Source: Proteromonas lacertae (taxonomy: Eukaryota). Taken from it: DNA of 60,875 nt. Below are positions 15,021-45,586 of the stretch, in pieces (within the stretch, counting starts at the first letter, position 1; every line of letters starts with the position of its first letter). Both the position numbers and the translations under genes were made by a program. Location: positions 62,001-122,875 of the forward strand of contig NGBS01000310.1 in the NCBI GenBank assembly GCA_002245135.1. The letters run 5' to 3'. The notes under the pieces were generated by a model. The model was not told the origin of the DNA, made no database searches, and worked only from the letters and a program-made list of their open reading frames with translations.

Positions 15021-15062
<42 letters not shown>

Positions 15063-18000
15063 CATACATCTGATACATTCTCATCATATATTGGTGTATT
15101 AATCACTTTATATCTCTATTAAAATATTATTCTCAATACTATATATACATCAAAAGCAACTGTTCTAGAAATACCAGGGAAAACAGGAATTGGATCACTA
15201 ATATAAGGATCATTATCAGTATCTGATGTTGCTCTGTTTGAAGAACTGTTGTTGTTTTTTATATTCTTTTTACTATTCATTGTAAAAGACTTTTTATGCG
15301 TATGAATTTTATTATTATTTATATTGTTATTATTATTATTATTATTTCCTTCTGATAATTGTGTTTTTAATTGTTCTTCTGCTTCATGCAGCTCTTTAAG
15401 TTTCTAAATGATAATCTAATAATAATAATATATACTTTTTGTTCATTAATAATTACATTTTTGTTTGAAATGATATTTGGTATTTTATTTGGTTTAGAAA
15501 TGATATTATTATTATCTTTATTCTGTGAAGAATTATTTGTTGTTGCTTTTATAATATCTTCATCATCATCTTTAATAAGATCATTATTCTATTTCAAAAA
15601 TATATATATTAATATGAAAATAACTAATACAAATGGATAAGTAATAGCTGTATTTCCTGATAACAATGCTTGCAGTTTCTATACAAATTAAAATAAAACA
15701 ATTATCAATATATACAAGATCTGCATCAAATTTCTCTTTAATAGCTCCACTTTCCCCAAAGGCAGTTAATAAAGTAGAATCAGGTATTTGTGAAAATGAG
15801 GGGAAAACTCCTTTATTATTCTCAGACATATAAACACATTTTAATATATCGTCAGGTTTAATATCAGTAAGATTTTCATTTATTACTTTTATCCTACCAA
15901 ATAGCTTATTCTTACATAATGTATCTTTAAATGTTTCCCAATCATATGATAGTTGAGATGCACTTTGTATGAGTGACTTCTGTTTAGTATATAAGATTGT
16001 ATTACTTATTTGTTTCTTAGTTAAAAGATTACTTTCAGATGATAGATTGGTTATATTCCATAATAACTTCAACTCATCTCTATCCAAGATTGGTATGAGA
16101 GGAATCCATCTATATTTTACTGGACAATTATTTGGATCTTCTTCAATATTCTCTGGAAACCATTTATCTATTTCTCCATTATGTTCTTCTAACTTCTTTT
16201 GAATTGATTCTGGTAATAAATGAAAACTATATTTTGGTATAACAGTCAATAATTGTAACAATGGAGTTAATGGTTTTCCTATTTCAAATGTACTAAACTG
16301 TTTTGAAATCTTTTTATTAGTATCTTCTCTCATTTTCCTACTTTCTGATGTAGATGGTTCATTGGTTATTTTATTCTGTAATTTATCTGTTGAGATAATA
16401 TTATGATCTATTCCATATTGTGCTATATCTGATGGACATGGAGGCATATGATATGGATAATACCAAGTCCAAGATGGACAACCACGATGATAATATAAAT
16501 TAACCCAATTCAAACCTTCTAGATATTTCTCAATTATTTCTGACTTATTAATTGATTTATTGGGGAAATATCTTTTGAATTTTTGTGAGTAATAAGATTC
16601 TTTCCAATTATCATCATAATAATCAATCTATTAATAATTATAAAGAATTTAAAATATTATATACTCCATCACTGCAATTATTGGCAATTTGTGAATCATT
16701 ATTTGCTTGTCTTAATTTCATATCAAAACTATTTACAATTAATAAAAATAAAAAAACAGAAATTTATACTATTTAATTTCATCACCTTTTGGTAGTGTTT
16801 CAACTAACTTTGTTCTTACATTATTCGAATCAAATAGAAAGTGTTCTTTATTCAAATATTCATTAGGAACTCTACCTGAGTAAAAGTTATGATATGAAGA
16901 AAATCTATATTGATATTAAATTTTTAAAGAAATATACTTGCTATAACCTCTCAAAAATGCATTTTCCATATTTCCTAATACTTGAAACAGAATCATTGCA
17001 CTTTCTAAATTGACAGTTCTATCTTCATTAATTATATAATCATTCATTTGAGGTAATGTGTGTTGATAAACTGCAAATAATTTATATACACTATCATTCA
17101 CTAATTACAAAAGGATTAAAGATATACATAAATGAGAATTAGATTATTAAAAAAAAAGATATATCAAAACCTGGAAATGCTGGTAGGAAATCATTTCCTA
17201 CTAAATAAGTCATAAATATAAAATCATTTATTAATCTATCAAATTTGAATTCAAATGACATTTTTGATTGTAATGGAGCCCATTCTTTATATAAACAAGT
17301 TCTGAATAATGCAGTATCAAATGCCTATTTAATTATTTGATTATTAATATGACAAATAATAATATATAATATACAACAAATTTAGTTTTCATAGATAATC
17401 TATCATCTAATTCAGATGGACCAGTTTTTCTCAAACTTTCAGAAACTTCTAAACAATTTTCTTTTTGATGTCCAAATGATCCACATAAATAACATCTCAT
17501 TTTCCATACATCTTCCATTAGAACAGTACATAATGGTTCATGTGTAGTTAATGATAATACTGTCAAATCAGCATCTAAACCATAAAAACAATGAGTTTTA
17601 GGATGGTTGTTTCTTACACGAGTTAATAATCCTCTTTTTTCTTGTGATATACATTGACTTCTTACAAAATTCATTATCTTGTGTTCACCTTCACCTGGAC
17701 AATTCACATCGCTATAAATGACTTTAAGATCATTCCATTTCTCATCATTTTTCAGTCGATCTATAATATAATCCTTTATTACTGGTGCTAAATCATTCAT
17801 AAACTTTGTTCCTGGTGTTACCATATTTCCATCGAATGGATGATGTAGTGGTGGATCAGGTGATATACCATAATATGTTTGAAATATTAATTTCATGTTA
17901 TCTTCTATTTGTTTTGAACTCTCTGATTCCTAGATAAATAAACATCATGTTCTATACAATTTTTACTCTAAAACGTCTTCCTCTTTGTTGTATCATTTTT

Positions 18001-18354
18001 GCCATTGGTGGAACTCCATCTACAGCAAAATACACTAAATCTTTCGGTTTTGCTATATCCATAATACTGTCAATATATCTAATAATATTATAAGTAATTG
18101 AAATACTGGTATATATTTTCAAAGACATCTTCTTGCGTCATTGGTGTTCTATTCAACAATGATCCATGAAAGCAATTGTGAATAATGCTATTCAGATCTA
18201 AATACAAATTATCAAATCTTTTTTCAGTGTCTGAATAAACTGTAGTAGAAGGTCCTTTAATTAAACCTGGAGGAGTATAATGAGACACTGATATTTCTTT
18301 AACTGATTTGGGGAATGTTCTTCTTATCCATTTAAAAAATAATGGAATACCCAT
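14882..18354 (-). CDS. 5'-3' exoribonuclease, XRN family (CCHC knuckle as in XRN2/Rat1)
   Basis: MGIPLFFKW, DNLYLDLNSIIH, AVDGVPPMAKMIQQR, VTPGTKFM, PGEGEHKIM, YGLDADL, GNDFLP, SWTWYYPYH, CYLCGSFGHQKENC. Confidence 0.92.
17105..17162 (-). other. U12-like AT-AA intron in XRN gene (58 nt, phase 0)
   Basis: GAT|ATATCTTT...TCTTTAAT-CCTTTTGTAA|TTA GTG; removal gives PGFD-LVNDSVYKLF, in register with the XRN motif. Confidence 0.7.
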
Positions 18355-18433
18355 TGATGATTTTTGATTGAGATGGAATGACTGAAATGTTCCCAAACCT
18401 ATAGGTTTGACAGATTGTTGTTTTTTGTATTTA

Positions 18434-18981
18434 ATGAATAAGGAGGTATATTGGATGAATATAAATGTGTAGGTGTCACAGCCAGTTAGAGGAACTATTG
18501 ATATATATGGTTTTGTGTTTTATATCATATCATTAGTTGTTATAAGTATATTATATAATGAATATAATTATTGTTTGATTACCATAGTTTTGTACATTGT
18601 ATTTCTGATAATGCCAGAACATATTTTGAAGAAATATAATGTGTTTGTTATTTCTCATTATTGGCTTTTAGTAATACCAGTGTTTATCATGTCATTAGCT
18701 GTATATGCATATTTTGCAAATATATCCCTTTTTTGATGTTAAGAAAACTCTTTTTCTTAATATATGAAAGCATTTTATTCAAATTCACTTACATCTTCAC
18801 CAACATCGAAATTAGCTTATTGTGATCATTATTCTAGAAACAGAGAAGAAGTTGAGAAGAATTGTAAATTTGATGTTTCTCCCCAGTATGATATAAATCC
18901 TATTGATTTATCTAAAGTATTTGTTATGCGTTTTTTATAACTATTATATTCTAGATCCTTTATTTGAAGAAAAATACATGA
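18434..18981 (+). CDS. PIGP: GPI-GlcNAc transferase subunit P (PIG-P/Gpi19)
   Basis: IYGFVFYIISL...MPEHILKKY...HYWLLVIPVF...DHYSR...YDINP pattern of PIG-P; three GT-AG introns plus one AT-AA intron. Confidence 0.75.
18722..18769 (+). other. U12-like AT-AA intron in PIG-P (48 nt, phase 0)
   Basis: AAT|ATATCCCTTT...TTTCTTAAT-ATATGAAA|GCA; contains three in-frame stops; no GT-AG pair I tested restores the frame. Confidence 0.7.
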
Positions 18982-19131
18982 ATTTGTGAAATTAATCAAT
19001 AATTTAACTATTTATGTTTTGTAAATCTTTTGTAGATTATATTTTCTTCTTAAAACAATCGTTAATTAATGTTTATATGAAGTGTAAAAATTCCATAACA
19101 TGTCAATATCTGTAATTTACAGCAGAAATTT

Positions 19132-20230
19132 ATGTTTTCTTCTTATGATGCTGTGAAGCTATCTGATGGCTTGAAAAGAGCAAGAATAAGATGTAGTCTA
19201 GTATACATTTCATTTACTAATATAATAGATTGATGGTCAGATAGGTGATAAAGTGTTGAGATTGAAAAACTCTGCGTTAGATCACGATAAACGAGGAGAA
19301 ACATCTTTAGCTAGAATGGATGTATAACTATAGTATATATTTATTTTATAGGCTAAAGGTTATATTTTGCAACAAAGACAAAAATATTTATACTATACTG
19401 CTGCAAGTATTTGTCAATCGTTGTTGACTTTAATGGTATTTAATAAAGTGTTATTACTACTGTCATTATAGAAATCCATAACTGAAGCTAAAGGAAAGAA
19501 TGTACCTCAAGATGTGTTAGAACCACTCCATACATATTTATATTTAAGAGATAGGTTACAAATTGATGAGTTTCAAATAATTGATAAACAAATTAAAGCT
19601 AAATTTGGAAATATTAAGTGTAACGAATCGTGTATAGTGCAAGAATGTCTCAATTATGCAGCTACTGCAGTAAGTGATACAGAAATAGAGATGGCACTCA
19701 ATGAAATAAAAGGAATTCAAACAACAACTCAACCAACAACAGCAGTACCAGCAGCTACAATGTCAGCACCAACTACAATGACAACACCAGTGATGACTAC
19801 ACCTATTCCACCAAGTTATCCTGCAGGACAACCTCCTAATTATATACAAATATCAAATGAACCAAATAATCAGCAATTTTTACCAGGTCAAAGTGATTTT
19901 ATTCAACCTTCTTCTGGAGTTATTCCTCCTGGTGGATTTGTACCTCCTTCTCAACCTAATCCAGTTAATCCTAATGTTGGATTTCCTAATTTTGACCCAA
20001 CTACAGGTCAACCTCCAATAATACCAACTAATAATCCATATTATCCTCCATCAGATAATAATAATAATTATCAACCACCACAACAACCAAGTTTTCCACC
20101 TCCTTCGAATTATCCACCTCCTGGTAGTTATCCACCTCCAAATAATAACTATCTACAGCCACCACCCAGTAATTATCCTCCACCTTCTAATTATCCACCA
20201 CCAAACAATAACTTTCCTCCACCATATTAA
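19132..20230 (+). CDS. IST1-like ESCRT-III-associated protein with Pro-rich tail
   Basis: MFSSYDAVKLSDGLKRARIR...EFQIIDKQIKAKFG resembles the IST1 N-domain; NYPPP repeats at the C-terminus. Confidence 0.55.
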
Positions 20231-20397
20231 TTATTTTCATTTTAGTTAAAATAATTGGTATGTAGTTATATATCATTATCTCTATTGAATGATTTGTTTG
20301 TAAAATGAAGATTTTATTAAAAACACAAATAATTGTGGTTTGCTCAGATCTTGTCTGAATCGAAAATTCATTTTTTGATTTTCTTGCATATAAAGAA

Positions 20398-21752
20398 ATG
20401 GATCCAGAAAATAAAGACGTAGTTGAACAAGTTCAAGAATCTGATCTTGAAGCTAGATTAGTTACTCCATCAGAACCTGATATCAAAACTAGAATCTTAG
20501 GTACAACACTTAGAGGAACTATATTTGTCATCATGAACTCAAGTTTAGGTGCTGGATTATTAGCATTACCATTGACTTTCTATAGAAATGGACTTGCTTT
20601 TGGAAGCTTTATGATTTTTGCAGTTGGAGTAATATCAATATTATCCTCTTATTACATTCAATCATCAGCATATGCTGCAAATGCAAGCACTCTAGGAGAT
20701 ATTGCTCAAAAATGCCAAGGTAAAACCTTTCAAATAATCGTAGATATAACTCAAATTTTATTAAATTTTGGATTCTGTATTACCTATGTAATTATCATCA
20801 ATGATCAAGTTCCTCATGTATTAGACCAATTCACAGGATGGAGACCACCTACAGCCTTAGTATCTTCTCTCTTCGGTTTATTAATATTATTCCCACTATC
20901 TAGTTTAAAAGATATTGGTAATCAAAAATATCCAAGTTTAGCTGCAATTACATTCATTTTCTTATTCATTATATTATTGATATACACAGCTTTTACATCA
21001 CCAACAACAGAAAAATTAAGAATCATACCAACTTCTTATTATGAAATATTACAAACATTCCCTGTATTATTTTTCTCATTCTGTTTTCATGTAAATATCC
21101 CCAAATTATTCTTTGAAATAAGAAGACAAAGTACTGATAAAAGACCTAGTCATTTCGCTACTAGAAGAGATAAAGTGTTATTAGGTACAATCATTGCATG
21201 TTTATCTGTTGCTATGTTATATATATTTGCTGGAGTTTGTGGATATTGGTCCTTTGGTAGTAAATTAAGAGCTGATGTTTTATTGAATTTCAATGATAGT
21301 GGAGGTGTATTGATTAGTATTATTAGATTGGCTTTCGCTTTGGTTGTTTCATTTTCATTCCCTATTTATGGGTATATTTATATATATATTTATATTTTTA
21401 TAGTGTTCCATCTATTGTTGCAATATGGCATTTTTATTCATTGGAAGAATTGCCTACTAAATATAGATTACTATTATCATTTGCATTTGTGACGGTTTCC
21501 GTGGCTATTGGAACTGGTTTCCCTGATATTTCTATTGCATTTGGATTGGTTGGTTCAACTGCATCTGTACTAGTTTTGTATATTCAATAGTTTATATGAT
21601 TTATTAGATTTATCTATCCATCAATATTTTATCTAAGAACACATCCAGATTTAAAGACATGGGAGAAAATACTTGCATGGTTTATAATGGTGTTAGCTGC
21701 AATTATTGGAATAGTTTGTACTGTAATTACTATTATTGATGCGTTCAAATAA
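20398..21752 (+). CDS. Amino acid transporter (AAAP/SLC38/AVT family)
   Basis: NSSLGAGLLALP, FFSFCFHVNIP, GYWSFG; about 11 hydrophobic segments. Confidence 0.9.
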
Positions 21753-21881
21753 ATTACCAAAATAAATATGCCTCTTAAATAATGTTTTTATGGAATATAT
21801 TTTGTAATTTTGCTATTATATAAAGAATAAAAAGAATTTTAAAATAATGAAACGATAAAATATATATAATTTGTTCCAAAA

Positions 21882-22823
21882 ATGAGCAGTGAAGAAACCA
21901 AAGAAGAAATAGAATTAAAAACAACAGTATCATCAGAAGAAACACCATTGTCAAAGAATGCAAGGAAGAAATTAATGAAAAGAAAAAGATTAGAAGAAAA
22001 ATGGGCAAAAATAAAGGAATTGAAAAAAGAAGAAAAGGAAGCGAAGAAAATAAAACTAAAAGAAACAACTGAAACAAAACCGATAGGTATATAATCAGAA
22101 TATACTCTAGATCCTCTAATTAGAGAAGAAAGGAAGAAAAAAATTATAGAACAAAAACAGCAATTCAAAGAAGCAGTTGATAAAAGCCAAAGAGTGATAG
22201 TAGACTTTGGATTTGAGAATATGATGTCAGAAACTGAAAGAAAGAGTTTAGCATGCCAAATTTTGTATTTATATGGTGATATTAAGAAGAGTAAAATACC
22301 AATAAAACTCTATTTATCTGATTTTCATGATGATATAAAAATGAAGTTAGAAAAAATGGCAGGTTTTCATGATTGGGTAGTATATCCAGATGAGCGACCA
22401 TTTCAAAACATATTCGCTAAAGATCAATTAGTATATCTCACTGCAGATTCACCATACACAATAGAATCATTAGATCCAAATAAAGTCTATATAATTGGCG
22501 GAATAGTAGATAGGAATAGATATAAAGGTTTAACATATGACAGAGCTACTAATTTAGGCATAGAAACTGGTAGATTGCCTATTGATGATGGTATTAAGCT
22601 TTTATCATCAAAAGTATTGACTGTAAATCATGGTATATTTTGAAAGTGTTATTTTGTAATAGTTGGTAATATTTTATTGAATTATCAGACTGAGAAAGAC
22701 TGGAAAGAAGCACTTTTAAAGGCTATACCTAACAGAAAACTACAAAATGAGGATCATCTCAGTAAAAGACAGAGGAGAAGGAAGAATATGAAAGAATTAA
22801 GTGACGAAAAAAAAGATGAGTAG
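21882..22823 (+). CDS. TRM10: tRNA (guanine-N1-)-methyltransferase, m1G9
   Basis: LSKNARKK, VYLTADS, VYIIGGIVDRNRYKG, RLPI, VLTVNH, AIPNRK. Confidence 0.93.
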
Positions 22824-23172
22824 TTTGTTTTGTGTTTGGGGTTGATTACACAAATATGTCTCAATTTCATAAAAGTAATGCATTTTGAATATTTCATTTA
22901 GAATAATAATTTATTTCCGCATAATAACATTTGCATGAATTATTTTTCAGATTTAAACAGAAAATTTACATACAAAGTTATGCAAGAAATGGATTTGTAA
23001 TTCTTTAACATTCATCGGCATTATTATAGAATTCATAAAATACTGCCAGACGGAATTTAGCTGAATTTACATAAAGGCGGTATTTAACAAATCTAAAGCA
23101 AGCTCGAGCTTTCTGTGTAGTAAAAATAAATTCTTTCATAATTTCATAAACACTGTGTGTTACTCTTTTTCA

Positions 23173-24555
23173 ATGGCTAGTCCTTACAATTTTCCCAATG
23201 CCAATAACTATATGATGGACAGAACCCCAAGAGAAACAAGCAATTATTATAAAAGCGATAATCAAATGAACTGGGAAGGGCTGTATGTTGAAATGATGGA
23301 CTCTTTTAATAATGTACCTTCTAGTTCAATGAAATGGGATGGAATATCGCTAAATACACACCCATTAGATAACTTGTTAGATATTGCACCTTCGACGATC
23401 AGAAACTATTATATCGATAATCCTCCACATTTAACAAATGACTGTATGCTTAATGCTCCCGCGCTACATCCAATGCCTTCATCCATTCCAGATATTGTTA
23501 CAAACTCTCCAAGAACAGTGCCATCAGTGTCAAACCCTGCTTTTGAAGATAATTCAGCCAATCATAAGCAAAATTATCCTTTAAACTCTTCCTATAGTCT
23601 TAAACAATTATCATGTCAATCAGTAAATGATGGAAATGATAATTCTGAAGATAGTAATGATGAAGATAAGCAATCTGCATCTGTACCACCACCTGCACTA
23701 GTATTTAATATCGAAAAACCAAAGAAAAAATCATCAAAACCATCAGAACCAATAAATGATGAGAATAATCTAATGATTAATTATTACAACCAAATCATGA
23801 GGAATTCCAAGAAGAAATACAGAGATATGAGTCCATTATCCAATATTGATGGTACAGAGAAGTATGTAGAAGGTATTACAGACATTCCAGATGAAATACC
23901 TGAAGATCAAATCGAAAAATTTAATGAATATAGTAAACTCAATTTTGTATGTAAAAAATGTAGTAAAACATTTCCATTGCTTAAGGCTTCTACTTATTTT
24001 AATGGTGGATTATGTTGCATACAATGTTGTAGCTGTATACATCGTGAAACCATTGGATTGTATGATTATATGAAAGATGTATATTTTGAGAATGAAAACT
24101 TGTACAAATGTGATAGGATTATCCATTATAGACCGTTATGGCAATTTTTGAAGTTTGAAAAGAAGAAGAAAACTTGGAAGATTGCTAAATTATGTATATA
24201 CTGTAGAAATTTGAAGTGTTGGGAATACTTAAATAAACCAAACAAAAGAAGAAAAACTATGCAACAACTTCAAAATGAAAAAGTAAAACAACTAAAACAA
24301 CATAATATTTCTTCAGTAATTAATCCAGATGATCATTTAGTTATTTCACAAGATGATGAAATAAATAATAGTAGCAACAGCAAAAGGAGTAGATGTAGTG
24401 ATGGTGATGATGATAATGTGAGAAAACCACCAAAAAAGAAAAGTAAGAAGAATAATAGAAAGAGAAGTAGAAAGTTTAAGTATGATGATGATGATTATAG
24501 TGATGATGATGAAGATGATAAATATGAAGATGATTCTGAAGGGTATACTTTTTAA
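23173..24555 (+). CDS. Intronless hypothetical nuclear protein with Cys-rich (putative Zn-binding) core and basic/acidic tail
   Basis: 460-codon ORF with CKKC, CCIQCCSC and CIYC; NLS-like KKKSKKNNRKRSRK. Confidence 0.7.
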   Translation: MASPYNFPNANNYMMDRTPRETSNYYKSDNQMNWEGLYVEMMDSFNNVPSSSMKWDGISLNTHPLDNLLDIAPSTIRNYYIDNPPHLTNDCMLNAPALHPMPSSIPDIVTNSPRTVPSVSNPAFEDNSANHKQNYPLNSSYSLKQLSCQSVNDGNDNSEDSNDEDKQSASVPPPALVFNIEKPKKKSSKPSEPINDENNLMINYYNQIMRNSKKKYRDMSPLSNIDGTEKYVEGITDIPDEIPEDQIEKFNEYSKLNFVCKKCSKTFPLLKASTYFNGGLCCIQCCSCIHRETIGLYDYMKDVYFENENLYKCDRIIHYRPLWQFLKFEKKKKTWKIAKLCIYCRNLKCWEYLNKPNKRRKTMQQLQNEKVKQLKQHNISSVINPDDHLVISQDDEINNSSNSKRSRCSDGDDDNVRKPPKKKSKKNNRKRSRKFKYDDDDYSDDDEDDKYEDDSEGYTF

Positions 24556-24716
24556 AAATCATCTCTACATGTATTATTTTGTATTATTTTCTATATATTA
24601 TTGATAATTATAAGTGTAATGATTCTTTTTTTTATAATGATATGATTCTTTGTTTGTGTGGTTTAAAACCAATAAAACAATGATATTTAAGTAAAAATAA
24701 ATATAAAATTGTCAAA

Positions 24717-25560
24717 TTATTCATAATAAGATATAAATTCGTTATAATCGATTATTCCTTCCTTCTTTCTATCAAAAAATTTCACTAAATTCTCATATTG
24801 AAAATCATCAATTCTTACACCACAATCTGCTAGTGATATTCTAAATGTCTTCAAGTCCATTTTACCTGATTTTGATTCATCATTCATATTAAATACTTTA
24901 TACATACTTTCTGTATTTACAGCGCCATATTTATCAATTATTATTTTTCGTATTTTATCAATAACCAATGGAGCACCTGGATTTTTACGGATTGTTGGTG
25001 GTAAATACCTTCTTGTTGTTTCACCTTCTTTTATTTGTTCTCGTATTAATTCTGTTGTATATCTTCCTCTTAAATCTGGATCGTCTTCTGTCCATCTTCT
25101 ACGGTATTCATCTAAAGCATCTCTATTCTTAGTCATTATTGTTGGTTTTAAATGAAATTCTGTTCCAAATTCTGTGCCTGTATTTACTTCAGGATCTCTG
25201 TAAGATGAGTGTGAAATACTTTCCCAATTACCACTGTTTTGCCTTTTCTGATAATGAATTACATTGTCGTAATCTATTTGATCATCATATGCTGGAATAT
25301 GGTTATAAGGTATTAGAGTTTCTATTCACAATTAAAGGAATAGTCAATACTGTGAGCATGTTCCAATTGTAATGAAGTAGTTGATTTAAAATCGACTGGA
25401 GGTTCTGCAACAGGTTTAGCAAGATATCCAGGTTCATGTCTAACAAGATAAAGCCATAAATATACCTTCCTTCAAACCAATTTCCTTCTAATACTTCGTA
25501 TCTGTATGTACGAATGCCACCACGTAATGCATTAGCTCCATGTTCCCTCTCGTATTCCAT
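24717..25560 (-). CDS. EF-hand protein with N-terminal GNWFE motif (axonemal microtubule-inner-protein-like)
   Basis: YEVLEGNWFEG; two EF-hands NDESKSGKMDLKTF and FDRKKEGIIDYNEF; two GT-AG introns. Confidence 0.7.
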
Positions 25561-25740
25561 TAATCAATAAAACAATCAAAAAACGGCAGAAAAAGCTTGT
25601 GTCACTCGAGTATTTACTAAATCAAATTTTTATTTTTTCTTTCCTTTGATTGTTCATTTTCTCTTCGATTGTATATTATTAGCATAAATATGCATTTCTT
25701 TATTGGTTTTATTATTTTATTTCTATAGAGTGTTGTTGAA

Positions 25741-27011: not shown

Positions 27012-27050
<39 letters not shown>

Positions 27051-27496
27051 ATTCACAGCAGTATGAACAACAATATCAACAACAACAACAAGTTGATGAA
27101 CAATATCAATACCAAGATCAACAATACCAACAACCACAAATTGAACAACAGCAATATCAAGAAGAGCAATATCAACAACCACAATATCAACAGCCACAAA
27201 CAACAGATGAAGAATATATACCAATTGCAGATGGAAGAATAGGTGAAACAGGATGGTACAAGACAAAAGCAGGATTAGTATCATATTTATACTATGGCAA
27301 CGACATTAGACAAGTATTAGTTGATAATATACTACCACAAGAGTTGAATGACTTGATTGAATTAGCTAGATCAAAAGACTATTTAATTGCATGTCCTGGA
27401 ACAGAGCAAGGAGAAAGTGGCTATTATTTAAACAGAAACGGAATTATTAGTAAGTGGGATGTAGTTGATGAAAGTTGGATGAAGGTACAAATTTAG
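25741..27496 (+). CDS. GOLD + coiled-coil + F-box + Gln-rich protein
   Basis: GOLD: YFETRENDIDF...GKLIITWDNSFSWFNDK; F-box-like NDILSYLHSNDILRLGVVCR...LWKYIF; polyQ encoded by (CAA)n. Confidence 0.7.
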
Positions 27497-27616
27497 ATGT
27501 AAATCATATATGCTATTGTCGATTTCTTTATTATTGTTTGTTTTTTGTGAGGATTTTTTAAACGTAGGCTTGATTCTCTTCTTTTCAGCTTGTGATCTAT
27601 TTTCATCCTAACAGTA

Positions 27617-28685: not shown

Positions 28686-28786
28686 TGATTTATCTTATTA
28701 TTTTTTTAAGTTTATTAATTAAATATTTATTATTTTTCTCACACAATCACAAAAATAATCAAACCAAATCAAAAGCATTTAATAAT

Positions 28787-29620
28787 TTATAATTTAATAT
28801 CAGGAATTGGAATATCTTTATATTCTTTTCCAAATTCATCTTCATATATGAGATGTTCTGGCGAATATCTTTTAGATATATAATGATGAGCTCCTTCAGC
28901 TGCATAGCCTACTCCAATTATTAACTGTGGAACATATGTCTTTGGCACTTTCAATACTTCACATACTTTTGCTTCATCATATCCTCCCATTGGAAGTGTT
29001 GCTAAACCATTACCTGTACATAACAACATAAAGTGATCAGCTATTAAACCAATATTTTGATTAGCCCAAGACTATATAGACTATATAATATTATATATAC
29101 AATTGCTGGATTTATATATTTACCACATTTACATGGTTCATCTGCACATTCTGGTGGAAATCTCATATCACAGTATTTGAAAGTGATTTGAGTTTGTTCA
29201 GCTGATTTTCCTGACTCTTCTGATAGTTTCTTAAATGCATCAAAGTTCTGACTTGGTTCTATTCAACCACAATATAAAAATAAGCATACTACAATCACCA
29301 CAAAATACTACAGCAGCTTGAATATTCTTTGTTGCTTCCAAATTAAAGTCTCTATAACAATCATGTAATTTTTCTAACATCTTCTTCTCTTTTACTACAA
29401 CTAAACGAAAGGGAGCCATGTTCAAAGAAGAAGGAGCTCTCTATTATATCTCATATTAACATTAATTATACTAAAGTATAACCTAATATTCTTTCCAATA
29501 AACCATTGGGAAGAGGTTTATCAAGGAATTTTCTACAACTAAATCTCTCACTCACTATCTTTTCAGCAACTTCAGCAGTTTTCTATAATAAAATAGTTAT
29601 TTTATATATACACAACTCAT
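28787..29620 (-). CDS. Nitroreductase family protein
   Basis: ERFSCRKFLDKP, RAPSSLNMAPFRLVVV, GLATLPMGGYDE, IIGVGY. Confidence 0.88.
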
Positions 29621-29685: not shown

Positions 29686-30860
29686 ATGTCAAATATAAAC
29701 CCACCAGATTTCAATCAAGGTATTAAATTATATTAGTAATATTCTATATAGCTGTGGTGCTTGATAATGGCTCAGGATACATAAAAGGAGGCTTTTCAGG
29801 TGATGATGCTCCTCGTTCGGTGTTTTCATCAGTGGTTGGTATTCCAAAGCATGAAGCTGCTATGATGGGAATGGATGCAAAATGTCATTTCATTGGAGAG
29901 GAAGCTGAAGGTAAAAAAGGCATATTAGTCTTAAAAAATCCCATTGAACATGGTATTATAACAAACTGGGATGATATGGAAAAACTATGGCATCATGCAT
30001 TCTATAATGCACTTCATGTTGTTCCAGAAGAACATCCAATATTACTAACAGAACCACCATTAAATCCAAAGCAAAATAGAGAAAAAATGACACAAATAAT
30101 GTTTGAAACATTCAACGTTCCTGCAATGTATTGTCAAATTCAAGCTGTTTTGGCTTTATATGGATCTGGCCGTACAACCGGTTGTGTATTAGATAGTGGA
30201 GATGGTGTAACACATACAGTACCAATATATGAAGGTTATTGTTTACCATTTTCAGTGAAAAGATTAGATTTAGCTGGAAGTGATTTAACAGACAATTTAC
30301 TAGAGATTCTTCATGAAAGAGGATATAGTTTAAGTACAAGTAATGAGAAAGAAACAGTTAAAGATATGAAAGAGAAAGTATGTTATGTAGCTGAAGATTT
30401 TGACAAAGAAATGAAAATATCTAAAGAATCAAACTCATTAGAGAAAGTATATGAATTACCAGATAATACAACCCTTACATTAGGTTCAGAAAGATTCCGT
30501 TGTAGTGAACCATTATTCCAACCATCCCTTCTACAGAGAGATATACCAGGAATTCACGATTGTACTTTTAATACTATTTCCAGCTGTGATAATGATATTA
30601 GAAAGGATTTGTATGGTTCTATTGTATTGTGTGGTGGTAGTACTATGTTTGTTGGTATTGATAAGAGAATGACTAAAGAATTGTCAGCTCTTGCTCCTCC
30701 CAGTATGAAAGTGAAAGTAATATCATCTCCTGAAAGAAAATATGCCACTTGGATTGGTGGTTCAATATTATCTGCTTTATCCTCGTTTCAAAATATGTGG
30801 ATTACAAAGAAAGAATATGATGATGCAGGTCCTAGTATTGTTCATAGAAAATGTTTTTAA
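29686..30860 (+). CDS. Divergent actin
   Basis: [55 protein letters not shown]; one intron. Confidence 0.95.
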
Positions 30861-33913: not shown

Positions 33914-34079
33914 TATTTAAAACAAGACTTTTTAATTAACTGGTTTATGTAAATTTTCGATACACCAAATAATTAAAAGAAGAATATCTTGTGGAGTCAA
34001 ATACATAAATGGATTTTATGGATTAAATGTAAAAACATCAAATGATAATATAAATAAAATATATTTAAATTAATAAAAT

Positions 34080-35926
34080 TCATGATTCACATCTAGTTTG
34101 AGAATTTCTTTTGTTTCCTGTATTATTATTCTTAATAGGAGTTAAGGTTGATTGACATTTATTTCTCATTTTAGCATTTTCCAATATTTCTGTCATAGAT
34201 AATCTTCTTGAAGATCCTGTTTGTGATTGCTTACTTAAACTTTGTCTATTTGTATTATTAGATTTAGATTTACTATTTTTCAATGCTATTAATTATATAT
34301 TATTAAATCAATAATACTTTTAACAATGTTCTGATATTTTGGATCTTCCCAAGGATCAATTACTTTTTCTTTTTTACTATCTTCTTGAAGTAATTTCAAT
34401 TGATCATCTACAGATCTTTCAATTTCATTATAATTATTATTCTCTTGTTGTTGTTGTTGTTGTTTCTTTAATCTTTTTTCTTCAATTTGTTTATGAGTTC
34501 TTGGAGTTATTTCTGGTATTACATATCTATTCTTCATATTATCACCAATTGAACCATCAACTGGATTGTACAATGATGCATCTAATATAAATATAAATAT
34601 TTATATAATATACTTGCATTGGCACATTGTCCTGCATCTTTCATATTATCAGTTAAAGTAAATCTTTTTGAAACACCAAATGTACCAAATGGACGTGGAG
34701 GAGTTGAATTAAACTGTGATTTAGGAGAAAATGTTTGTGGACCTGAATAATGACCTTTATTGTATATTATTGGATAATTGAATCTTTCATATTCCTCTAC
34801 TTCTGGTGGTCTTTTTAATGTTTTTTTATTGTTATTGTTATTTGTATTTTCTTCATTAGTTGGTGATGATGATGATGATGTGGAACTGGTTACAAACGGA
34901 TGAGATTCTGGAATTTTTGAATTTTGAGTACTTTCCTATATACAATTATATAATAATTACAATAATATATACAGAAAATGGATGTTTTGGTTTCATATTA
35001 TTACTTATACTATTATCTACAGGATCATACATTATTGCATCTAATAATAATAATAATAAATATATACTAACATCTTTCAATTGTCCTGCTTTTTTCATAT
35101 TATCAGTTAAAGTAAATCTTTTTGAAACACCAAATGTACCATATGGTTTAGGTGGAGGAATCTCATCAAATTTTGATTTTGGTGGATATGTTTGTGGTCC
35201 AGAATAATGTCCTTTATTGTATATTTCTGGGTAATAAAATCTGTCACTATCTTCAATAAAATCTGGTTTCTTTGGAACTTTCTAGAAAATAATAAAATAT
35301 TAATAATTATTCTTTAATTATATATATACAATTGGACTTGATGTTGATCTTTCCATTGATAGGCTATTTCTTCGTGTTGATGACTTTCCATTTGTATTAA
35401 CTGAATTTGGTCTATTGCTTTGCTTTGAATTTAAATTACTTCTAGAAGGCGAAGAATCTTCCATTTTCTTGTATTTTGGTTTTGCTGAAGTTGAAACAGA
35501 ATAGTTCTCTGGTGCATATAATGCTGCTTCTATTCATCTATTAATTAACTGATAATACCTGATGTATGTGTTAATTTACCTGCATATTTCACATTTTCAG
35601 TTAATGTGAACTTTTTAGAGTATCCAAATGTACCTGCTGCTGATATTGGTCTTTTTAAAATCTATTTGAGTATGTATTATTTATTGTAATACTTCTTGAT
35701 GATAATCATCTAAGTTTGATTGTTTAGACCTTGAAAAAGTAGTTTTCGATGTAGGAGATATAGTTTCACATGATTTAGACATTCTTAATTCATCTGGAGT
35801 GGCATATGGATCATAAGTTCCTGGTCCCTAAACAATAATATGCTCAATCTATACTGGATGAACATCATATGTGATTCTTTCTCTGAATGAGTAAGAAAAA
35901 TCCTGCAACGGCCCTAAATCCTCCAT
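34080..35926 (-). CDS. PGP/SHIPPO-repeat-like (ODF3/STPG-type) protein with internal repeats
   Basis: FSYSFRER...HPGPGTYDP; repeated YSGPQT and GTFGVSKRFTLTDNMK units; many short introns. Confidence 0.55.
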
Positions 35927-36008
35927 TTTATATTTTTCTTACTGAATAAACGAATCTATTTTTAAAAATAAAAAATAACGTTTTTCTCTTTATTTATTGA
36001 TAGAGAAG

Positions 36009-36782
36009 ATGTTTTTTATAATAAAATATGGAATTGGTATATTTAAAATGATAATAGTCAATAGAAAAGGAAGCTATGTTCAATATTGAAACTAGAGCAA
36101 ATGTTCTACTAGATGCTATGCGAGACTTTTGTATTACACAAATATTAGTATAAAATGCATATTTAATTTGCTAGGCTGATTTAAAAGCTGAAAAAAAGAA
36201 ACTAGAAACTGAATTAAAGGATCTTCAACAAAAGATTGTAGTATGGAAACCACCAGAAGAGCCTCGTATATAAAAGATCGTTTATTGAATGAATAGCTGA
36301 GGAAACACCTCCACCTAATGCAAAAGGAGCTAAAAGATCAAAGACTCCCAGTAAAGGCAAATTACCACCTGTAGATGCAGAATTGCAATTAATGAAACGT
36401 ATAGAATAATATATTAATCAAACTCAATAGAAACTGAAGAATTAGTTCAAAATCGAATAACTGCAGTAGATGAATTAGTAGTAAAATATACAGAAGAAGA
36501 ACCACCCAATACACATTACGATTTAGCTGATTTAAAAGGAGGAAAACCAATAGGTTTATTTGAAAAAGGAAATGATTATTCATCTTGTCTATTACATCCA
36601 AGGGAAGTATATAATTTCATGAGAATCAGTATAGTTAATAATATTAATATATTGTATATATAGCTCCAGCTGAAGGTAAAGCTCCACCCGCTATCTTACC
36701 AATGACTTATGATTTACCATCTACTGATCCAAATGCACCGCCTGATAAGAAGAAGGGTAATAAATCAGTGAAAAAGAAGTAA
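36009..36782 (+). CDS. Small protein resembling the CXorf65/C22orf15 family
   Basis: Spliced N-terminus MFFIIKYGIEKEAMFNIETRANVLLDAMRDF; basic C-terminal tail; family match is from memory only. Confidence 0.5.
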
Positions 36783-36904
36783 ATAAAATAATACCAAAAT
36801 AATAACTTTTATTTATTTTTATTGTGAATTGTTGATTAATGGTGATATAAATACATTATACCAACAACAGAAAAGATAGATAATAGAATAATACATTTTT
36901 ATAA

Positions 36905-38816
36905 TTAATTCTGATTGTATAATCTTCTATTTTTGAATATAATATAACTTCCATATTTTATATTCTTCTCTGACAGTTTAGGTATATAATACGATCTATA
37001 GGGCGATCTAGAATGATCTAAATCAATAAACTTATCCACAAATATAGCCTTCCAATTACTATCTTCCCTTAAATCAGGTTCTTTTTGTTTTATCAAGTTT
37101 AATTCAACGAAATAATGACAATTATTAATGTCAATATATCTAGTCATTTCTTCTTGATTTTGATCATTCATATGTGTTGGAATGATATAAGTTCCATTAG
37201 AAGTTCTTTCATATTGTTTTGGTAATAATCCATGGAAATTGGCTCTTACAAATGTGACATTTATATTGTCATGAGGAATAAAATAATGAGCTGGAAATCT
37301 ATGCCATTCTTTACCTAAACATACATTTGTGTCTTCTTTAACTATTAAAACAATATTATTGATAAAATATACCATTCATTAATTCATTGGATAAGAATGT
37401 ATAAGCTCTAATTGGTGCTCTAAAGTATTGGAATATTGCTACAACTCTTAATACAGAGAATAAAGCGATTGAAAATATCAAACTCATAATAAAGGAATTA
37501 TAATATTTAATAAAAAACTCAGTCTTTGCATTTTTACCAAATCTTTCAACAAATGCTTTCATTTTAACAATTGCAATTGCTGCACCTTCAATAAAGAGAG
37601 GATAAACAATATATAAAAATCTTTCTTCCTATTACATTAATATAAATATATACAATAATGAAACAAATATTATACTTTATGTGGTCTAGTAAACATAATC
37701 AATAACCATAAATATAACGGACAATAATACAACATCATTTTAAACAAACTTACATAGGGAGATGTTTGAATCATAAATAAAGGTGGAACAATCATACCAA
37801 GTATAAAGATTATATTCAAATTAATTAAACAATTATTAATATAATATGAAAATGGTTCAATTCCATACAGATTTGGACCTCCACTTCCAAATACATTATA
37901 TATAATAATATTAATTACAGCGATGAATAGTTTATGATAATAATAGTAATCTATTATTAATGAGTAACTGAACAGACCAACTGCAAGTATAATAGCCCAT
38001 TGTAATACTTTGAAAAAACCTTTAACATACAAAGCTTAAAAATAACATTAAAGAAAACATATAATTATTATAAAGTAAAAATGATATATGTAAACCAATT
38101 GGAATAAAAACAACACCAACAAAAGGCCATCCAATACAAACAGCTGTAGCACCATAAAATAGACTCCAAAAGAAATTATCTTTATACCAATTACCATATG
38201 ATAAACATAACATATACATAGCAAATGTTGATGGTAAATAAGCTGTGGAAGCAGTGAACATACCACTTGATATAATAAGAAATAGTAAAGTATAAAACCC
38301 TACTGATTTACCAAATCTATATTTTATTCCACTAATGAATGTCAATTCAGAAATTGTTGAGAATAAGGCTAATGCAATTCTAATTCCATAAAATACATAG
38401 ATTTTGTTGGATGTAAAGAATTTTATTATTTCACCAACAAATATATGTGGAAGCAAGTAACTATATGAACGAAGTGCATACACAGGACTAATTATTATAT
38501 AAACAGGATTCATATACCTATATTCCCATGTCTGAAATCCAAATCCATACATCAAGTAATGGGAAGGTTCCCAGAAATTGAAGGTCTCATCACAATCGTT
38601 GATAATGTTATATATTGCACTACACATTCTAACATACCATAATTAAGAATATAATAAATTATTGATGATAAAAAATGATATAATTAATAGCAGACATGAA
38701 AGAAATGTGAATGGATACCAAGGTTCATGCAATTTCATTTCAGATTTATCACCTTTATTTTCTTGATTCCTTGTATATTCCTTTTCAACCTTATTTTGTC
38801 TCTTTTGTGGGTTCAT
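36905..38816 (-). CDS. ALG9: Alpha-1,2-mannosyltransferase
   Basis: DCDETFNFWEP, FQTWEYSPVYALRSY, YLPSTF, GWPF, PHKEERFL, VCLGKEWHRFP, MNDQNQEE. Confidence 0.95.
38036..38087 (-). other. U12-like AT-AA intron in ALG9 (52 nt, phase 0)
   Basis: CAT|ATATCATTT...TTTCTTTAAT-GTTATTTTTAA|GCT; joins ORFs 38022-38627 and 37670-38032 in frame (IGLH-ALYVKGFF). Confidence 0.75.
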
Positions 38817-38931
38817 TTATGAAATAATCACAAAATTCTTACTAATAAGCTTGATCAAAGCTCGAAAATATTTAATTTCTATTTTTCTCATTCATTTGAT
38901 GATATCAACACAAAAATAAAACATATTTACA

Positions 38932-41227
38932 TTAATAAATAAGCAAATAAAATAATAACGCATAAAACACACTTATACAGAAGTTGATGAAGAAAGATTG
39001 GGATTTATTTGGCTTTAAACAAGGATTTCCATTTCCATTATAATTTACACACTTGAAAACATATGTCATACTATTCTCTTTTACTTTTATTTGACTATTA
39101 TATCCATCACTATAATAACAACCATAACATCCAGGTATGTTATTACACAAAATATAATTTGTATTTTCACTACAATTACCAGTATAATTATAATGAAATA
39201 TATGAATCTGGCTTTCATACACTTCATATATAACTGATTTAAATGTGATATTAAACCATTCCATATTATTCATATTATTAATTGAGTATTTATAACTTTC
39301 ATTAATTGTTATTTCAAGCCTAAACTTCATTATCTCATCTGGTTTAAAAACAGTATATGAATTATCAACTGGAATATAGCTTGTATGCCATTTGTAGGAT
39401 AAAGCTAGATTCTGTTTATATGGAGATAGTGTATAAGCAGTAAATGGAATAACAGATTTGTTACTATTATTAATTACATCAAAATAATTTGTTAGAGTTC
39501 TTTTTGTTATTTTTTCTATATTTATATAATGATGATATTCGTTTTCTATAAATTCAATCTCACAGTATGAATAATTCATAAAATCACAAATACCACAATT
39601 GTTAATATATAAATCCTTATCACATGTTCCTCTACAATCTATTCCATAATCTAATGGTATTCCACTTATATTCACACAATAACCACATTGGTTTTCTATT
39701 CCATACCCATTACAAGTTCCATTACAATCCATTGTTGAGTTTTTACCTGTTAAACCTCCTACACATTCATCACATTCAACATATGCATTTCCATTACAAG
39801 TATTATTACAATCAAATAAACAACAAATTAATTCATCTTTTGATTCAGTTGTAGTAGTAGAATTTGCATTCACTATTTCAGCTGTTCCATTACATTTACC
39901 AAAACAATCTAAAGAGTTAATATTACAACAAATTTTATCAATTTTTATTTCATCATCATCATCACATAATTTATCACAGGCTTTATTATATAGTACATTA
40001 TCACAACTTGAACCAAAATCATAACATTGATTATTCCCTTTGCAATAACCACAATTATCACATTCACCTTCTAATCCATTACATAAATTAGTATTCTTCA
40101 AATTATCTTGGTCAAATGTATAATAAAATTGAAGTTGCTGTAATTTAATTCTTTCAGATTGAATATTTAAATCATAATAATATAAATTTAGGATTATTCT
40201 AGAATCTTTATCAGTAATATTTTTCACTGATGGAATTAAACAGTTCAATGTGGTGTTAGAAGTTACATTACATTTACCTTCATAATTAGTATGATTATAT
40301 TCAAAATCAAAACTAAATTTCATTTTTAAACATACAATTCTATCAGCAGATAATGTAATATTACTTCCACTTGAATAATTGATATAAAATGGAGTTAAAC
40401 AAAATGATCTTGGTATTGGATAATATTCTAGTGTTATATCATCATTAAACATTCCACGAGATGGGTAATAACCATTTATTGTATTATCACCCCAGTCTTT
40501 ACCATCTATTAATATATATATTATATCATATAATAAACATACAATTTGAAATTTTGTTTGGAATGAATGATAAATATGTAGTTTTTGGTACAATTAATCC
40601 ACCTACAAATACTTTGTATTTATTATCATCTTTTAAATAGTCTGGTAAGTTATTATCAATTAATTTTAATTGATGGATTGTATATATTTTGTAATAATGA
40701 ATTTTAATTTTACCTGTTTCATATAATTTTATAGAAAAGCTATATCGAAATGAAGATTTGATATTCAATAACCCCATATTATGGTATAACACTTCTATAT
40801 TATCTCTTGATAATTTGTAATATATAAATGTATCATTGTATTGAAAAGGAACGAAATTTGTTAAAAGTGGGGTTATTATTCCATTATAAGCATCCAATGG
40901 GTTAACATAATAGTAACATTCTCCATGAATTAATGAATAACCACAGGGAGGTTCAGGTTTGAAATGTAAAGCACCATTGGGATTTATAAACACATAATTA
41001 TAGATTTCTTCATAGAATGGGAAATGAAACTATTTAGATTAAATATACTAGTATACAGGTAGTTTTACAGTTTCAAAGGGTACATCATCCACATATGATG
41101 TAAATGATTTAACATATTCATCATCAATATTCACATGTAGTTTTTCTTGAGTTGCTTCAATCACATATTGATTACCTAATACAAAACCAGCGAAAAACAC
41201 AAAATAGAAAAAATAAAGTCGTTTCAT
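38932..41227 (-). CDS. Cys-rich cell-surface protein
   Basis: Signal peptide; FINPNGALHF...FSIKLYETGKIKIHY domain; DCxGxCxG repeats; hydrophobic C-terminus. Confidence 0.75.
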
Positions 41228-41316
41228 TATTTAATTCTTCTCTTTTTCTTTTTCTTGATTAATAAACACAATTTTATCATAATAACAGTTTAAATATATT
41301 ATTAACTATTACTGAA

Positions 41317-43402
41317 TTAATCTTTATGAGTAATTGATTGTAATTCAATTAAAGAATTTCCAGAACCACATGCAAATGAATATAATGGAGAAGGTAAATC
41401 TTTAACAAGTAAAACAGGAGATGAATTATTATGACTAATCCAAAATTCTCTTTTATTCATATCAACAATTACTTCATATATTGAACCATCTCCATGATTA
41501 TTGAAATTTGGATTTTTATTAACAGCTCTTCCAATATGACAATATGGAGTAATATTCACACTACTATCACCCCAAGCAGCATAGTTACATGTTGTAGATT
41601 GATTAAAAATATCTTTACAAGATAATGAATTATCAGTTGATAATCCTAACATTATTGAATCATTATTACTTCCATTTTGATTAAATTTATATTTGATATG
41701 ATAAACTCCATTTTCTATTTTCAAATTTAAATAACAATGATTCCAGCTTCCATTTGTATTTGTTATTAATTTTCCATTATTTGAGATTGATGTTCCATCA
41801 CTTTTGTTAAATTCTAAGGATATTTTGAATTTCATTTCACTTCGATTATTCTTACAACTTATTTCATATTCTCTCTTTTCGATTTCTTTATTCATTTTTC
41901 CATGAATTATTCCATTTTCTTTTTCTATCATTATTCCATCAGGTAAGGAAGGATTGATTGAAAATTCACATTTATCTCCATCAAATGAAGGAATTATTGA
42001 GATTTCTTCATTTAATATAAATAAATATTCAGATTGAGGATATGAAAATAATGATATTTCTTTTGTATTTAATTCTTCCAATAATTCTTTATCCAATATT
42101 ATTTTACTCATTTCTTCTTCATCTTTTTCACTCAATTTCATTTCTTGAATGTATTGAATTAATAATTCTTTGGATTTTTTGCTTAAACAATATTCATTGT
42201 TAAATATTCTATATAAAATTTCTTTTCCACAAAGATATTTCATTGTTGTTATTGATTCTTTATCATCAACAAATAAACATAAACATTTTAATGTTCGATT
42301 TCTTTTACATCTATTGAATTCAACACATATTCTTCCTAATAAAACATTCTTCATTTCATTTGGAATAACCTGATCATATTTCATTTTCATTAATATCTTT
42401 AATATTATTTCTACCAACTTTATATCATCATTACTTAATAATTTTACTAAATCTTCTTTCATTTCTTCTTTATCCAACATTTTTATCTCATTTTCATTTA
42501 ATTCTATTTCACTTTCTTCATCAATGTAATATTTGTTTATTTTCATTTTCAACTCTTCATTATCTATATCATCTATATCAACATAAATATGATTACTATC
42601 ATATTCACAAATTTCAATACCCAACTCTTTTAATTCACTCACATTTTCTTCTTCAATTTCTTCTTTCTTTATCTCATTTAAATAAACTTTTGTTTTTATT
42701 ATTGTAATAAACTCATTCAACTCATCTTCATTTTCTTCTTTAGCTTTTAATATACTCTTATACCATCTCAATAATCGATTTAATAACCACGTCTCATTCT
42801 TCATTATCAATTTTTTAATATTCAAAATGAATTTTAAAGAATCTAAATTCAGTTTTAAAAATAATTTATCTATTCAAATAAAATATAATATTATACCATC
42901 ATTTAAGTATTTAAAACCATTCTTAATTATATATTCTTCACTGATTTCTTTCAATTCATTCAGTTGGCTTATATTTATTTCATTTAACATTGAGAATATT
43001 TCAATCATTATTAAATCATTTAAATGACTTTTCAAATATCTTTTACATACTCTCATTATTCGATTATCATTGTAATACACACTGAATTTCAAAATATCAC
43101 AGATATTACTCTCATTTAATTCCATATAACCACCACTGTAGTATTTCTCTATCTCTAAAAATGAGTTTATTTCACATTTTTCAAACAGTTCTAATACTCC
43201 ATTCTGCTTTTCATCCATCAATAATTTTTTAATTGTATCATTGCCATTCATTAATATACTTTTTATACAGGTTATCTCTTCTCTTCCTACTTTCACTTTC
43301 AAATCACCATAACCATTATTCACTAGGATTCGACTGAGTCTATAAACTATATTATAATTATTTATACCCATTTTCACCAATTTCATTATCAATTACTTTC
43401 AT
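41317..43402 (-). CDS. BTB-BACK + Ig-like + SPRY/B30.2-like protein
   Basis: GDLKVKVGREEITCIKSIL...ELNESNICDIL; FSINPSLPDGIMIEKENGIIHG; IMLGL...YEVIVDMNKREFWISHN...LPSPLY; two introns. Confidence 0.75.
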
Positions 43403-43815
43403 TTCAGCAAAATATTGATTTTGGAATTATTTTTGTAATAGATTCGTTTCGTTCTCATTCAAATCAGTTACATTGAATAAATCAAGAATAAGAAATGATA
43501 GATACAGATAAGAATATGTAATGAATACAATGAGCATAATTGTAATGAAAAATTTATGAAAGATATATTATAATTGCTCAGAAAGTGATTTTGATAAGTT
43601 GATTATTTATTGTTATAATGTTGATATATACCAATAGAATAATGTTTTTTATTCAGATATTTTATAATATTTACTCTTCTTAAACATTTTTTAACTTCAG
43701 GTTGTTCAATTGCATACAGTATATCAATATTAATATAGTATTCATTTATCTCACTTAAATATCTACAAACAATCAAACTATATTTCAAATTTTCAAAATT
43801 TATTAATTACCATTA

Positions 43816-45586
43816 TTATAGAAGATCTACATCACTTACTTTCACTGGAATTAATTGATAAGATTTCTTTCTTCGATTTTGACATTTATCATATATCGAA
43901 TACCATAAACAACAACTAGCACAGATTCCACAGATCAAACTTAAATAATAAATATATGGAGTAATATAATATTCTGAATTATTCACTGATTCATTATTAT
44001 TTCCACTAATCAAACCAACACCCAAGCTCCATTCTACTTCACCGCCATTTACATTACCAACAAAATGGACATTATGACTATCACTACTAAATCCATATCC
44101 TTCATGTAATAACACTAAAATATAACTTAATTGAAAACATCGATAAGGTAATGTTCCAGCATCTGTATATTTATCACTGTCTTTATAATTTGTGCTTAAT
44201 TTATCCCAAGGAATTTCACATAATGCTTTTGTTCCTTTTTCTAAATCATTTATACTGGGGGTTTTATTTTCATTTATATCTAATAAGTTTGTATAGGATT
44301 TAATTGAATTTAAGGCGAAGTAGAATAAGCTCATGGCGTAGAATTCACCTCGAACTGGTGGGATGTTTAAACCAAATAATTTACAACTTACAAAATCAAA
44401 ATTAAAGAAATATACAAAAATAAAAAATGATATTAAAAAAATGATATTTGTTCCATTACAATTTGAATCAGGTTTTAATAATAATGCTATTAAATTATGA
44501 CATTCTTCATAATTCCCTGTTCCAACTGTCTTTAATGATGGATATGAACTATGGTTATCAATATAACCATTATGATAACAGGGATTATTTATCATTGAAT
44601 TATTATTATTTAAATATTTTTCTCGATTCATTAATATATATCTAATAAATCGATCTCTAATTTGTTCAGCACCAAATCCTAAAAAACTATACATAAATCT
44701 ATTTAAATAATAATGATAAATAATAATAACTATACAGTTTATTTGGATCTAATGGATCAGATTGTTTATATTCTGTTGGTTCAAATAATATTTGTGTTGA
44801 AGCTCCACCTAAATCTAAAGAACCAAGAGTTTGTTTCAATCTTTTCAAATTTGCAGATATTGATCCACCTAAATAATTTGCAGCTAACCATCCATAATAT
44901 GCTTCATCTTTACCTGATATTGTCTTCAATGAATCTCGATTTAAATTAAACAAAAATCCATCATTCTTAAATCCTTCATATATATTATCATATATTGCCT
45001 TTTGAGTTTCTGCTGGTAATAATCTCATCCCTGCTGTAGCAAATACATAGATTGATACATCCTTTTGTTTAGAATATGGAATTACTGTTTTGGCATAGTT
45101 AAATAGACTTTGATAGGAAATTTTATAAACATCATTTGGATGTGAAGCAAATGAACTTAATCCTGGTTTTTGCTTTTTTGTTCCTATTTCTTTGATTCCT
45201 GTTAATTCACTCTTTTTGTTACGTTCAAATTGGAAAATGTGCAATCGAGATCCAGTACTATTTAAAAAGTATTTATATAATATATAATTCATAATTCATA
45301 CCTTCCAGCATCAACAACCATTGCATACATTGGACTTATATTCACTTCTCTTTTTGAAAAGAGTAAATGTAATACCAACACTATAATAATATTATTAAAA
45401 GGAAAAAGAAAATACAAAAAGTAAGAATGATTGTTGGAAGTAGTTGAGGTATATCTCTAGCAAACTTACACTATTGTAAATATTGATAAAAGCATATACA
45501 GGTACATATAACATTCTCATAAGATATATTTCACAAGAGGAAGGTGATTCAAGCATCATATCAGGGTTATTTGAATGATCTTTCAT
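43816..45586 (-). CDS. Apyrase / E-NTPDase (GDA1/CD39 family)
   Basis: ACR motifs DAGSTGSR, KPGLSSF, ATAGMRLL, SGKDEAYYGWLAANY, DLGGASTQI, SFLGFG, EWSLG. Confidence 0.95.
44388..44447 (-). other. U12-like AT-AA intron in apyrase (60 nt, phase 1)
   Basis: ACA A|ATATCATTT...TTTCTTTAAT-TTTGATTTTGTAA|GT; removal deletes an implausible T-rich 20-aa insert and gives CNGTSCKLFG. Confidence 0.7.

Follow-up and report, generated by a model that had tools for sequence, protein, structure and literature searches.

Five short inserts in four conserved genes of Proteromonas lacertae are, from their sequence signals, very likely A-type (AT-AN) introns of the minor, U12-dependent class. They were located in a stretch of 60,875 nucleotides (nt) from contig NGBS01000310.1 (assembly GCA_002245135.1, forward strand, positions 62,001 to 122,875), which is referred to below as the window and whose numbering is used throughout. 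The pattern probably reflects a near-canonical minor spliceosome that ignores the last intron base, with AT-biased drift turning the final C into A or T. A first-pass annotation of the same DNA had described four of the inserts as a class of AT-AA introns, and their coordinates, starts, branch-like motifs, AA ends and lengths were all as it gave them; a fifth, the first of two in ALG9 (38634-38681, AT..AT), had been missed. AA was the commonest end, in four of five introns (95% interval 28-99%), and the class is better described as AT-AW than as purely AT-AA because the additional ALG9 intron ends in AT. The genes and inserts are as follows.

14882..18354, minus strand: XRN2-like 5'-3' exoribonuclease, approximate model (Pfam XRN_N and XRN_M, homologues, gene model).
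17105..17162, minus strand: minor-type intron in the XRN2-like gene, AT..AA, 58 nt, phase 0; ATATCTTTTTTTTT, TCTTTAAT, branch A at -12.
18434..18940, plus strand: PIG-P, GPI-GlcNAc transferase subunit, ends set by eye (weak Pfam PIG-P match, E 2.4e-4, below the curated cut-off).
18722..18769, plus strand: minor-type intron in PIG-P, AT..AA, 48 nt, phase 0; ATATCCCTTTTTT, TTCTTAAT, branch A at -10.
36905..38816, minus strand: ALG9 mannosyltransferase with two minor-type introns (Pfam Glyco_transf_22; ALG9 structure 9s6s, E 1.3e-39).
38634..38681, minus strand: first minor-type intron of ALG9, AT..AT, 48 nt, phase 0; ATATCATTTTTT, TTCTTAAT, branch A at -10.
38036..38087, minus strand: second minor-type intron of ALG9, AT..AA, 52 nt, phase 0; ATATCATTTTT, TCTTTAAT, branch A at -13.
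43816..45586, minus strand: GDA1/CD39 apyrase, approximate ends (Pfam GDA1_CD39).
44388..44447, minus strand: minor-type intron in the apyrase, AT..AA, 60 nt, phase 1; ATATCATTTTTTT, TCTTTAAT, branch A at -15.
44422..44433, minus strand: donor motif repeated within the apyrase intron (ATATCATTTTTT, 14 nt in); joined to the same acceptor it would break the frame.

All five introns carry a donor of the form ATATC-H-Y-TTTT and, close to the end, either TTCTTAAT (two introns) or TCTTTAAT (three introns), the motif lying 8, 10, 11 or 13 nt before the end in the four described first. ATATC and the T at +8 and +9 are invariant, the perfect donor ATATCCTT occurs in 0/5, and position +6 is A, A, A, T and C, with C at +7 in PIG-P. 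The branch motifs are near TTCCTTAAC, are present in both TTC and TCT forms, end in T in every case, and place the presumed branch A 9, 9, 11, 12 and 14 bases from the end; the optimum distance from branch to acceptor in U12-type introns is 11-13 nt (PMC3584512). For comparison with the major introns, a self-trained gene model of the window was used, which predicts 31 genes with 161 introns of the GT/GC-AG kind (median length 33 nt; 144 start with GTA and 145 end with TAG; local donor consensus GTAT). Because this model holds evident errors, comparisons were restricted to a core set of 126 predicted GTA..TAG introns of up to 60 nt (median 32 nt, 85% AT). Neither branch motif was found in any of these, TTTT at +8..+11 was found in two, and 11 reach 48 nt, in line with the earlier observation that the inserts are longer than most local GT-AG introns.

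The motif ATATC[ACT][CT]TT, scanned for without regard to the 3' end, has 23 sites in the window, six of which are followed by TTCTTAAY, TCTTTAAY or TCCTTAAY 15-75 nt downstream (100 block dinucleotide shuffles gave 0.62 on average and 3 at most). The six comprise the four introns of the first-pass annotation, the inner donor copy in the apyrase intron and the new ALG9 site at 38681; the excess is partly circular, because the motif was drawn from those four introns, and looser motifs barely exceeded shuffles (36 versus 28.7; 31 versus 19.9). A feature outside the selection motif, TT at +10/+11, was present at 6/6 donor sites with the branch motif and at 1/17 without it (P=7e-5). Under its strictest penalty, a gene model blind to the branch motif selected three of the five donors and no other site, and under the next penalty all five donors with four others. 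The ATATC candidates at 48735, 51093, 24734 and 24643 (middle penalty) were dropped, being without the strict branch motif and the T-run. The ends predicted by frame and register were AA in four introns, AT in one and AC in none; the window yielded neither AT-AC nor G-type U12 introns, and the first-pass annotation had likewise seen no AT-AC. Acceptors in AC that keep frame with the same donors would delete 9-15 residues, and PIG-P and the second ALG9 intron have none.

Removal of exactly AT..AA restored frame and protein register at the four junctions first described, as judged by profiles, Pfam positions and alignments, while AT..AG was one base out of frame at all four, both as previously claimed. 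Retention of the XRN intron introduces stops and a frameshift; on its removal Pfam XRN_M positions 30 and 31 join at the junction, and in a profile built from 120 homologues, mostly fungal, the 8 best-scoring of 572 joints that keep frame were all 58 nt. Retention in PIG-P gives three in-frame stops, and within 60 nt neither a GT-AG nor a GC-AG pair preserves the frame. In ALG9, for which a profile of 30 homologues was used, the second intron if retained causes a frameshift and its removal gives a gap-free alignment to P0122 and P0123; the best GT-AG rival lay 10.5 bits lower, and a 31-nt length class scored equally well. The first ALG9 intron if retained adds an in-frame stop, and its rivals were a GC-AG at 85.7 bits (9.2 lower) and an AT-AC at 71.7 bits (23 lower); the alignment of the exon upstream is loose and has a 7-column gap. 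The apyrase intron is in frame and stop-free if retained and splits the NTPDase1 match by about 20 residues; its removal closes the Pfam register exactly (position 287, two further residues, the junction codon, then 291), and its GT-AG rivals delete 15-31 residues. With the GT-AG rivals about 10 bits are lost or 15 or more residues are deleted, and PIG-P is without any. The earlier assignment as minor-type introns with non-canonical ends was supported.

A search of representative proteins with the PIG-P exon gave a single match, the relative P0160, in which 31/39 residues are identical to the window exon, followed by ISFLIFIEHTLFL and the end of the record. The tail, ISF...TLFL-stop, has 0/14 identity to the next PIG-P exon of the window. 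Its ISF matches ATATCnTTy at the same PIG-P codon (chance 25/20000), and its TLFL equals an other-frame reading of the window intron just before the branch motif; such a shared 4-residue word arose in 79/5000 shuffles. The record fits a reading into a homologous PIG-P intron that would have kept its signals and accumulated frame-free indels.

That the major spliceosome removes the inserts instead, or that splicing uses other junctions, either a nearby GT-AG or a TA..AG shifted by 1 nt, with the minor-like signals as relics, is improbable. A GT-AG junction keeps the frame in XRN (70 nt, with 4 residues lost) and in the second ALG9 intron (61 nt, with 3 residues lost), but the donors used, GTTTTG and GTTTAC, depart from the local GTAT consensus and cost 10.5 bits; in XRN, where it is the sole GT-AG joint nearby, it ranked 245 at 57.3 bits, and PIG-P offers no such option. 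The TA..AG shift had been said to keep frame in all four cases. It does so in three, and in ALG9 it scores equally (84.2 versus 84.0 bits), but XRN yields TA..AT and the shift also fails at the first ALG9 intron. A shift by 1 nt would alter the mRNA, save for leftward slides at the apyrase and first ALG9 introns, which leave it unchanged; the proposed exon joins read GAT|TTA in XRN, AAT|GCA in PIG-P, and CAT|GCT and ATT|GTT in ALG9. The donor and branch signals that P0160 appears to keep likewise speak against this reading.

Assembly error, in which a true AT-AG lost one G of a GG or an AC was miscalled as AA, was considered hardly credible. A G does follow three of the AA ends, and AT-AG makes up a third of the examined introns of Blastocystis ST1 (see below). 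Nevertheless, 551 isolated GG pairs are intact across long frames without a break that total 30,714 nt, so that three losses of G at intron ends are improbable, and such errors would leave the XRN end (AA followed by T) and the AT..AT intron unexplained. The tail of P0160 would also argue against it.

It is very improbable that one or two of the segments are not introns, with a 20-residue insert kept in the apyrase or ALG9 beginning at a downstream ATG. The apyrase segment is open and in frame and the first ALG9 exon is loosely aligned, as noted above, but both segments carry the full signal set and the apyrase register closes exactly on removal. ALG9 moreover has a major intron that is itself in frame and stop-free, a 30-nt GT-AG intron at 38488-38517 (minus strand) that corresponds to a 10-residue gap against 9s6s.

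Under the favoured explanation, in which the minor spliceosome is near-canonical and leaves the last intron base free, U11/U12 would bind the donor and branch site. The U12 pairing region GUAAGGA, as given in the first-pass annotation, agrees with Larue et al. (bioRxiv 10.1101/2020.10.12.336362). With either branch variant, one of two G's in this region would face a C and the other would form a G-U wobble, and because both forms can pair in this way U12 need not have changed. At the donor, base pairs between the T-run through +11 and the five A residues with which U11 opens (human AAAAAGGGCU; PMC7960923) could make up in part for the missing C of position +6. As acceptor the machinery would take the A-N nearest to the branch A among those lying at least 9 bases beyond it, with any base allowed as N, and for this reason AA would be chosen over the overlapping AG. 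With the last base free, AT pressure may have shifted the usual C to A or T. Fourfold sites in the window are 89% AT and intron bodies 85% AT, and a free last base under local AT content gives P=0.45 for A or T at all five ends.

The AT-AN class itself is established: A-type U12 introns are described in human by de Wolf et al. 2021 (PMC8280824), with an ATATC donor, a U12-like branch motif near the end and A or T allowed as last base. As described there, AT-AC dominates in human, whereas in the window 0/5 introns end in AC and no G-type intron was found. AT-AA accounts for 1.1% of minor introns in animal and 3.0% in plant conserved sets (PMC10639083 Table S1). What sets the window introns apart from the known class is the combination of AA/AT ends, a loose +6 and the T-run.

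Blastocystis ST1 (Gentekaki et al. 2017, PMC5608401, S11 Data) likewise has short A-type introns, longer than its major introns of about 30 nt, and uses all four last bases. Ends counted by eye in 120 of its 339 ATATC introns (rows 1-90 and 310-339) were AC in 73, AG in 39, AA in 5 and AT in 3; the 39 AT-AG introns stand beside a description in PMC5608401 as typically AT-AC and a review that calls AT-AG disfavoured. Its introns are mostly 37-42 nt and loose at +7/+8, whereas those of the window are 48-60 nt and loose at +6, with the T-run to +11. A or T ends were found in 5/5 here versus 8/120 in ST1 (P=5e-6). C occupies +6 in 336/339 ST1 introns (ATATCA 0, ATATCT 3, ATATCG 0), and a base other than C occurs there in 4/5 here versus 3/339 (P=3e-7), so the earlier suggestion of a relaxed +6 is borne out, well beyond what ST1 shows. 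Physarum polycephalum shares +6T donors and the occurrence of AT-AA and AT-AT ends, which make up 27% and 8% of its non-canonical U12 introns, but differs in that its minor introns number over 20,000, its branch site is TTTGA and a change in U12 has been demonstrated, with non-canonical ends a minority (Larue et al.). In a literature search that was thin on subscription papers, no report was found of a genome whose chief minor class is AT-AA.

Several points weigh against the favoured explanation or the exact boundaries. U12 dependence is a property that we infer for the five introns. Protein profiles set the length class and not the exact base, and the exact boundary is therefore based on the ATATC donor and frame: the proposed boundary ranks 12/572 in XRN (67.8 bits), 4/1222 in the second ALG9 intron and 15/822 in the first (AT..AT, 48 nt, 94.9 bits), and the branch-blind model took the proposed acceptor in 1/5 only. 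The reading of P0160 is that of a protein record assumed to end at a stop, with the 3' end out of view. The acceptor rule fits 5/5 introns with a threshold fitted afterwards, and A prevails over T at the end despite the T-richer intron bodies (P=0.07 for at least four A). Computed U11 duplexes were -8.3 kcal/mol for PIG-P, -3.4 for XRN and between -0.4 and -0.1 where +6 is A; the controls were -4.4 for a canonical donor without the T-run and +1.0 for a +6A donor without it. The T-run helps, yet leaves a pairing deficit for three donors with +6A, a base found in 3/5 introns here versus 0/339 in ST1 (P=1.5e-6).

This deficit is the best argument for a changed small nuclear RNA (snRNA) or more help from proteins. 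A variant minor spliceosome, with U11 and/or U6atac altered opposite +6, a second step that prefers A-A and AT-AA as the standard form, is unlikely but has several points in its favour: besides the +6A excess and the poor pairing to canonical U11, the branch motif always ends in T, AA ends are found in 4/5 versus 5/120 in ST1 (P=6e-5), and snRNA co-change has a precedent in U12 of Physarum, as reported in that preprint. Against it, the mixture at +6 suits loosened pairing better than a single compensating change, one intron ends in AT, the TTC and TCT branch forms coexist as an unchanged GG allows, and base composition accounts for the A/T ends. Equally doubtful is the fuller proposal of a dense (about 3%), wholly A-type system in which AT-AA replaced AT-AC and U11/U6atac changed for a T-run donor without C at +6; if true, it would be the second case of co-evolution between a minor spliceosome and its introns after Physarum, and the first to involve the 5' splice site. 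Annotation pipelines limited to GT-AG and AT-AC mis-model such genes, and minor introns may therefore be undercounted in AT-rich protists.

The window DNA is eukaryotic and gene-dense, with the standard code and about 26% GC. Of roughly 166 introns predicted, five are minor-type (3%, interval 1-7%), which hints at a high density. An Rfam scan of the window, at the gathering cut-off and also at E-value 1, gave zero matches and hence no minor snRNA match, and a transfer RNA search of the window found none. Six window reading frames were looked up in a protein collection and 0/6 were present; the adjoining transporter gene has relatives at 88% and 61% identity. A pattern-based scan of metagenome sequence for XRN genes that carry a minor donor at the same position returned 5 loci, which were 2 intronless XRN genes and 3 chance matches, and 19 viral loci at 32-42% identity came up in a related-locus scan with the XRN query. 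The corresponding scans of prokaryote and viral contigs with ALG9 or P0152 found nothing, and the gene names XRN, PIGP, ALG9 and ENTPD had 0 matches in 8 supplement files of PMC6717393.

The human-type Blastocystis genome has 39-55% GC, an TGTTTGTT element after genes and has lost cilia genes (PMC12129017). The window differs in its GC content, in that TTTGTT lies near the stop in only 3/31 gene models (the TGTTTGTT element being absent), and in having a gene resembling microtubule inner proteins by weak matches. These traits argue against a human-type Blastocystis genome, and they would suit a flagellated organism like Proteromonas, whose GC is 27%. This EF-hand gene (24717-25560, minus strand) has an N-terminus that matches Toxoplasma TLAP4 (E 0.026) and a best PDB match to RIB35 (in the EF-hands), and its Atlas leads for named families were under 0.9; it is likely to encode a microtubule inner protein and hints at a cell with flagella or cortical microtubules. 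A PGPG-repeat protein (34080-35926, minus strand), in whose scanned exons no fitting Pfam match was found, and a small protein (36009-36782, plus strand) presumably recall ciliary families.

Additional features of the window were recorded. XRN and PIG-P stand head to head with starts about 80 nt apart (18354-18434), and a minor-type intron is present in both. A predicted fusion of BTB and Hsp70-like domains lies at 9037-11646 (minus strand) and another BTB gene at 41317-43402. The nitroreductase gene at 28787-29620 (minus strand) has four introns and may be of bacterial origin by old transfer, and a divergent actin is found at 29686-30860 (plus strand), for which Actin-1 entries have the top PDB scores by a slight margin. 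A coding segment is duplicated at about 48860-49100 and 51470-51700 (plus strand), near-identical with its intron included and with differing upstream parts. A long frame at 59138-60283 (minus strand) has a weak match to an integrase core (rve, E 0.0055) and may belong to a mobile element.

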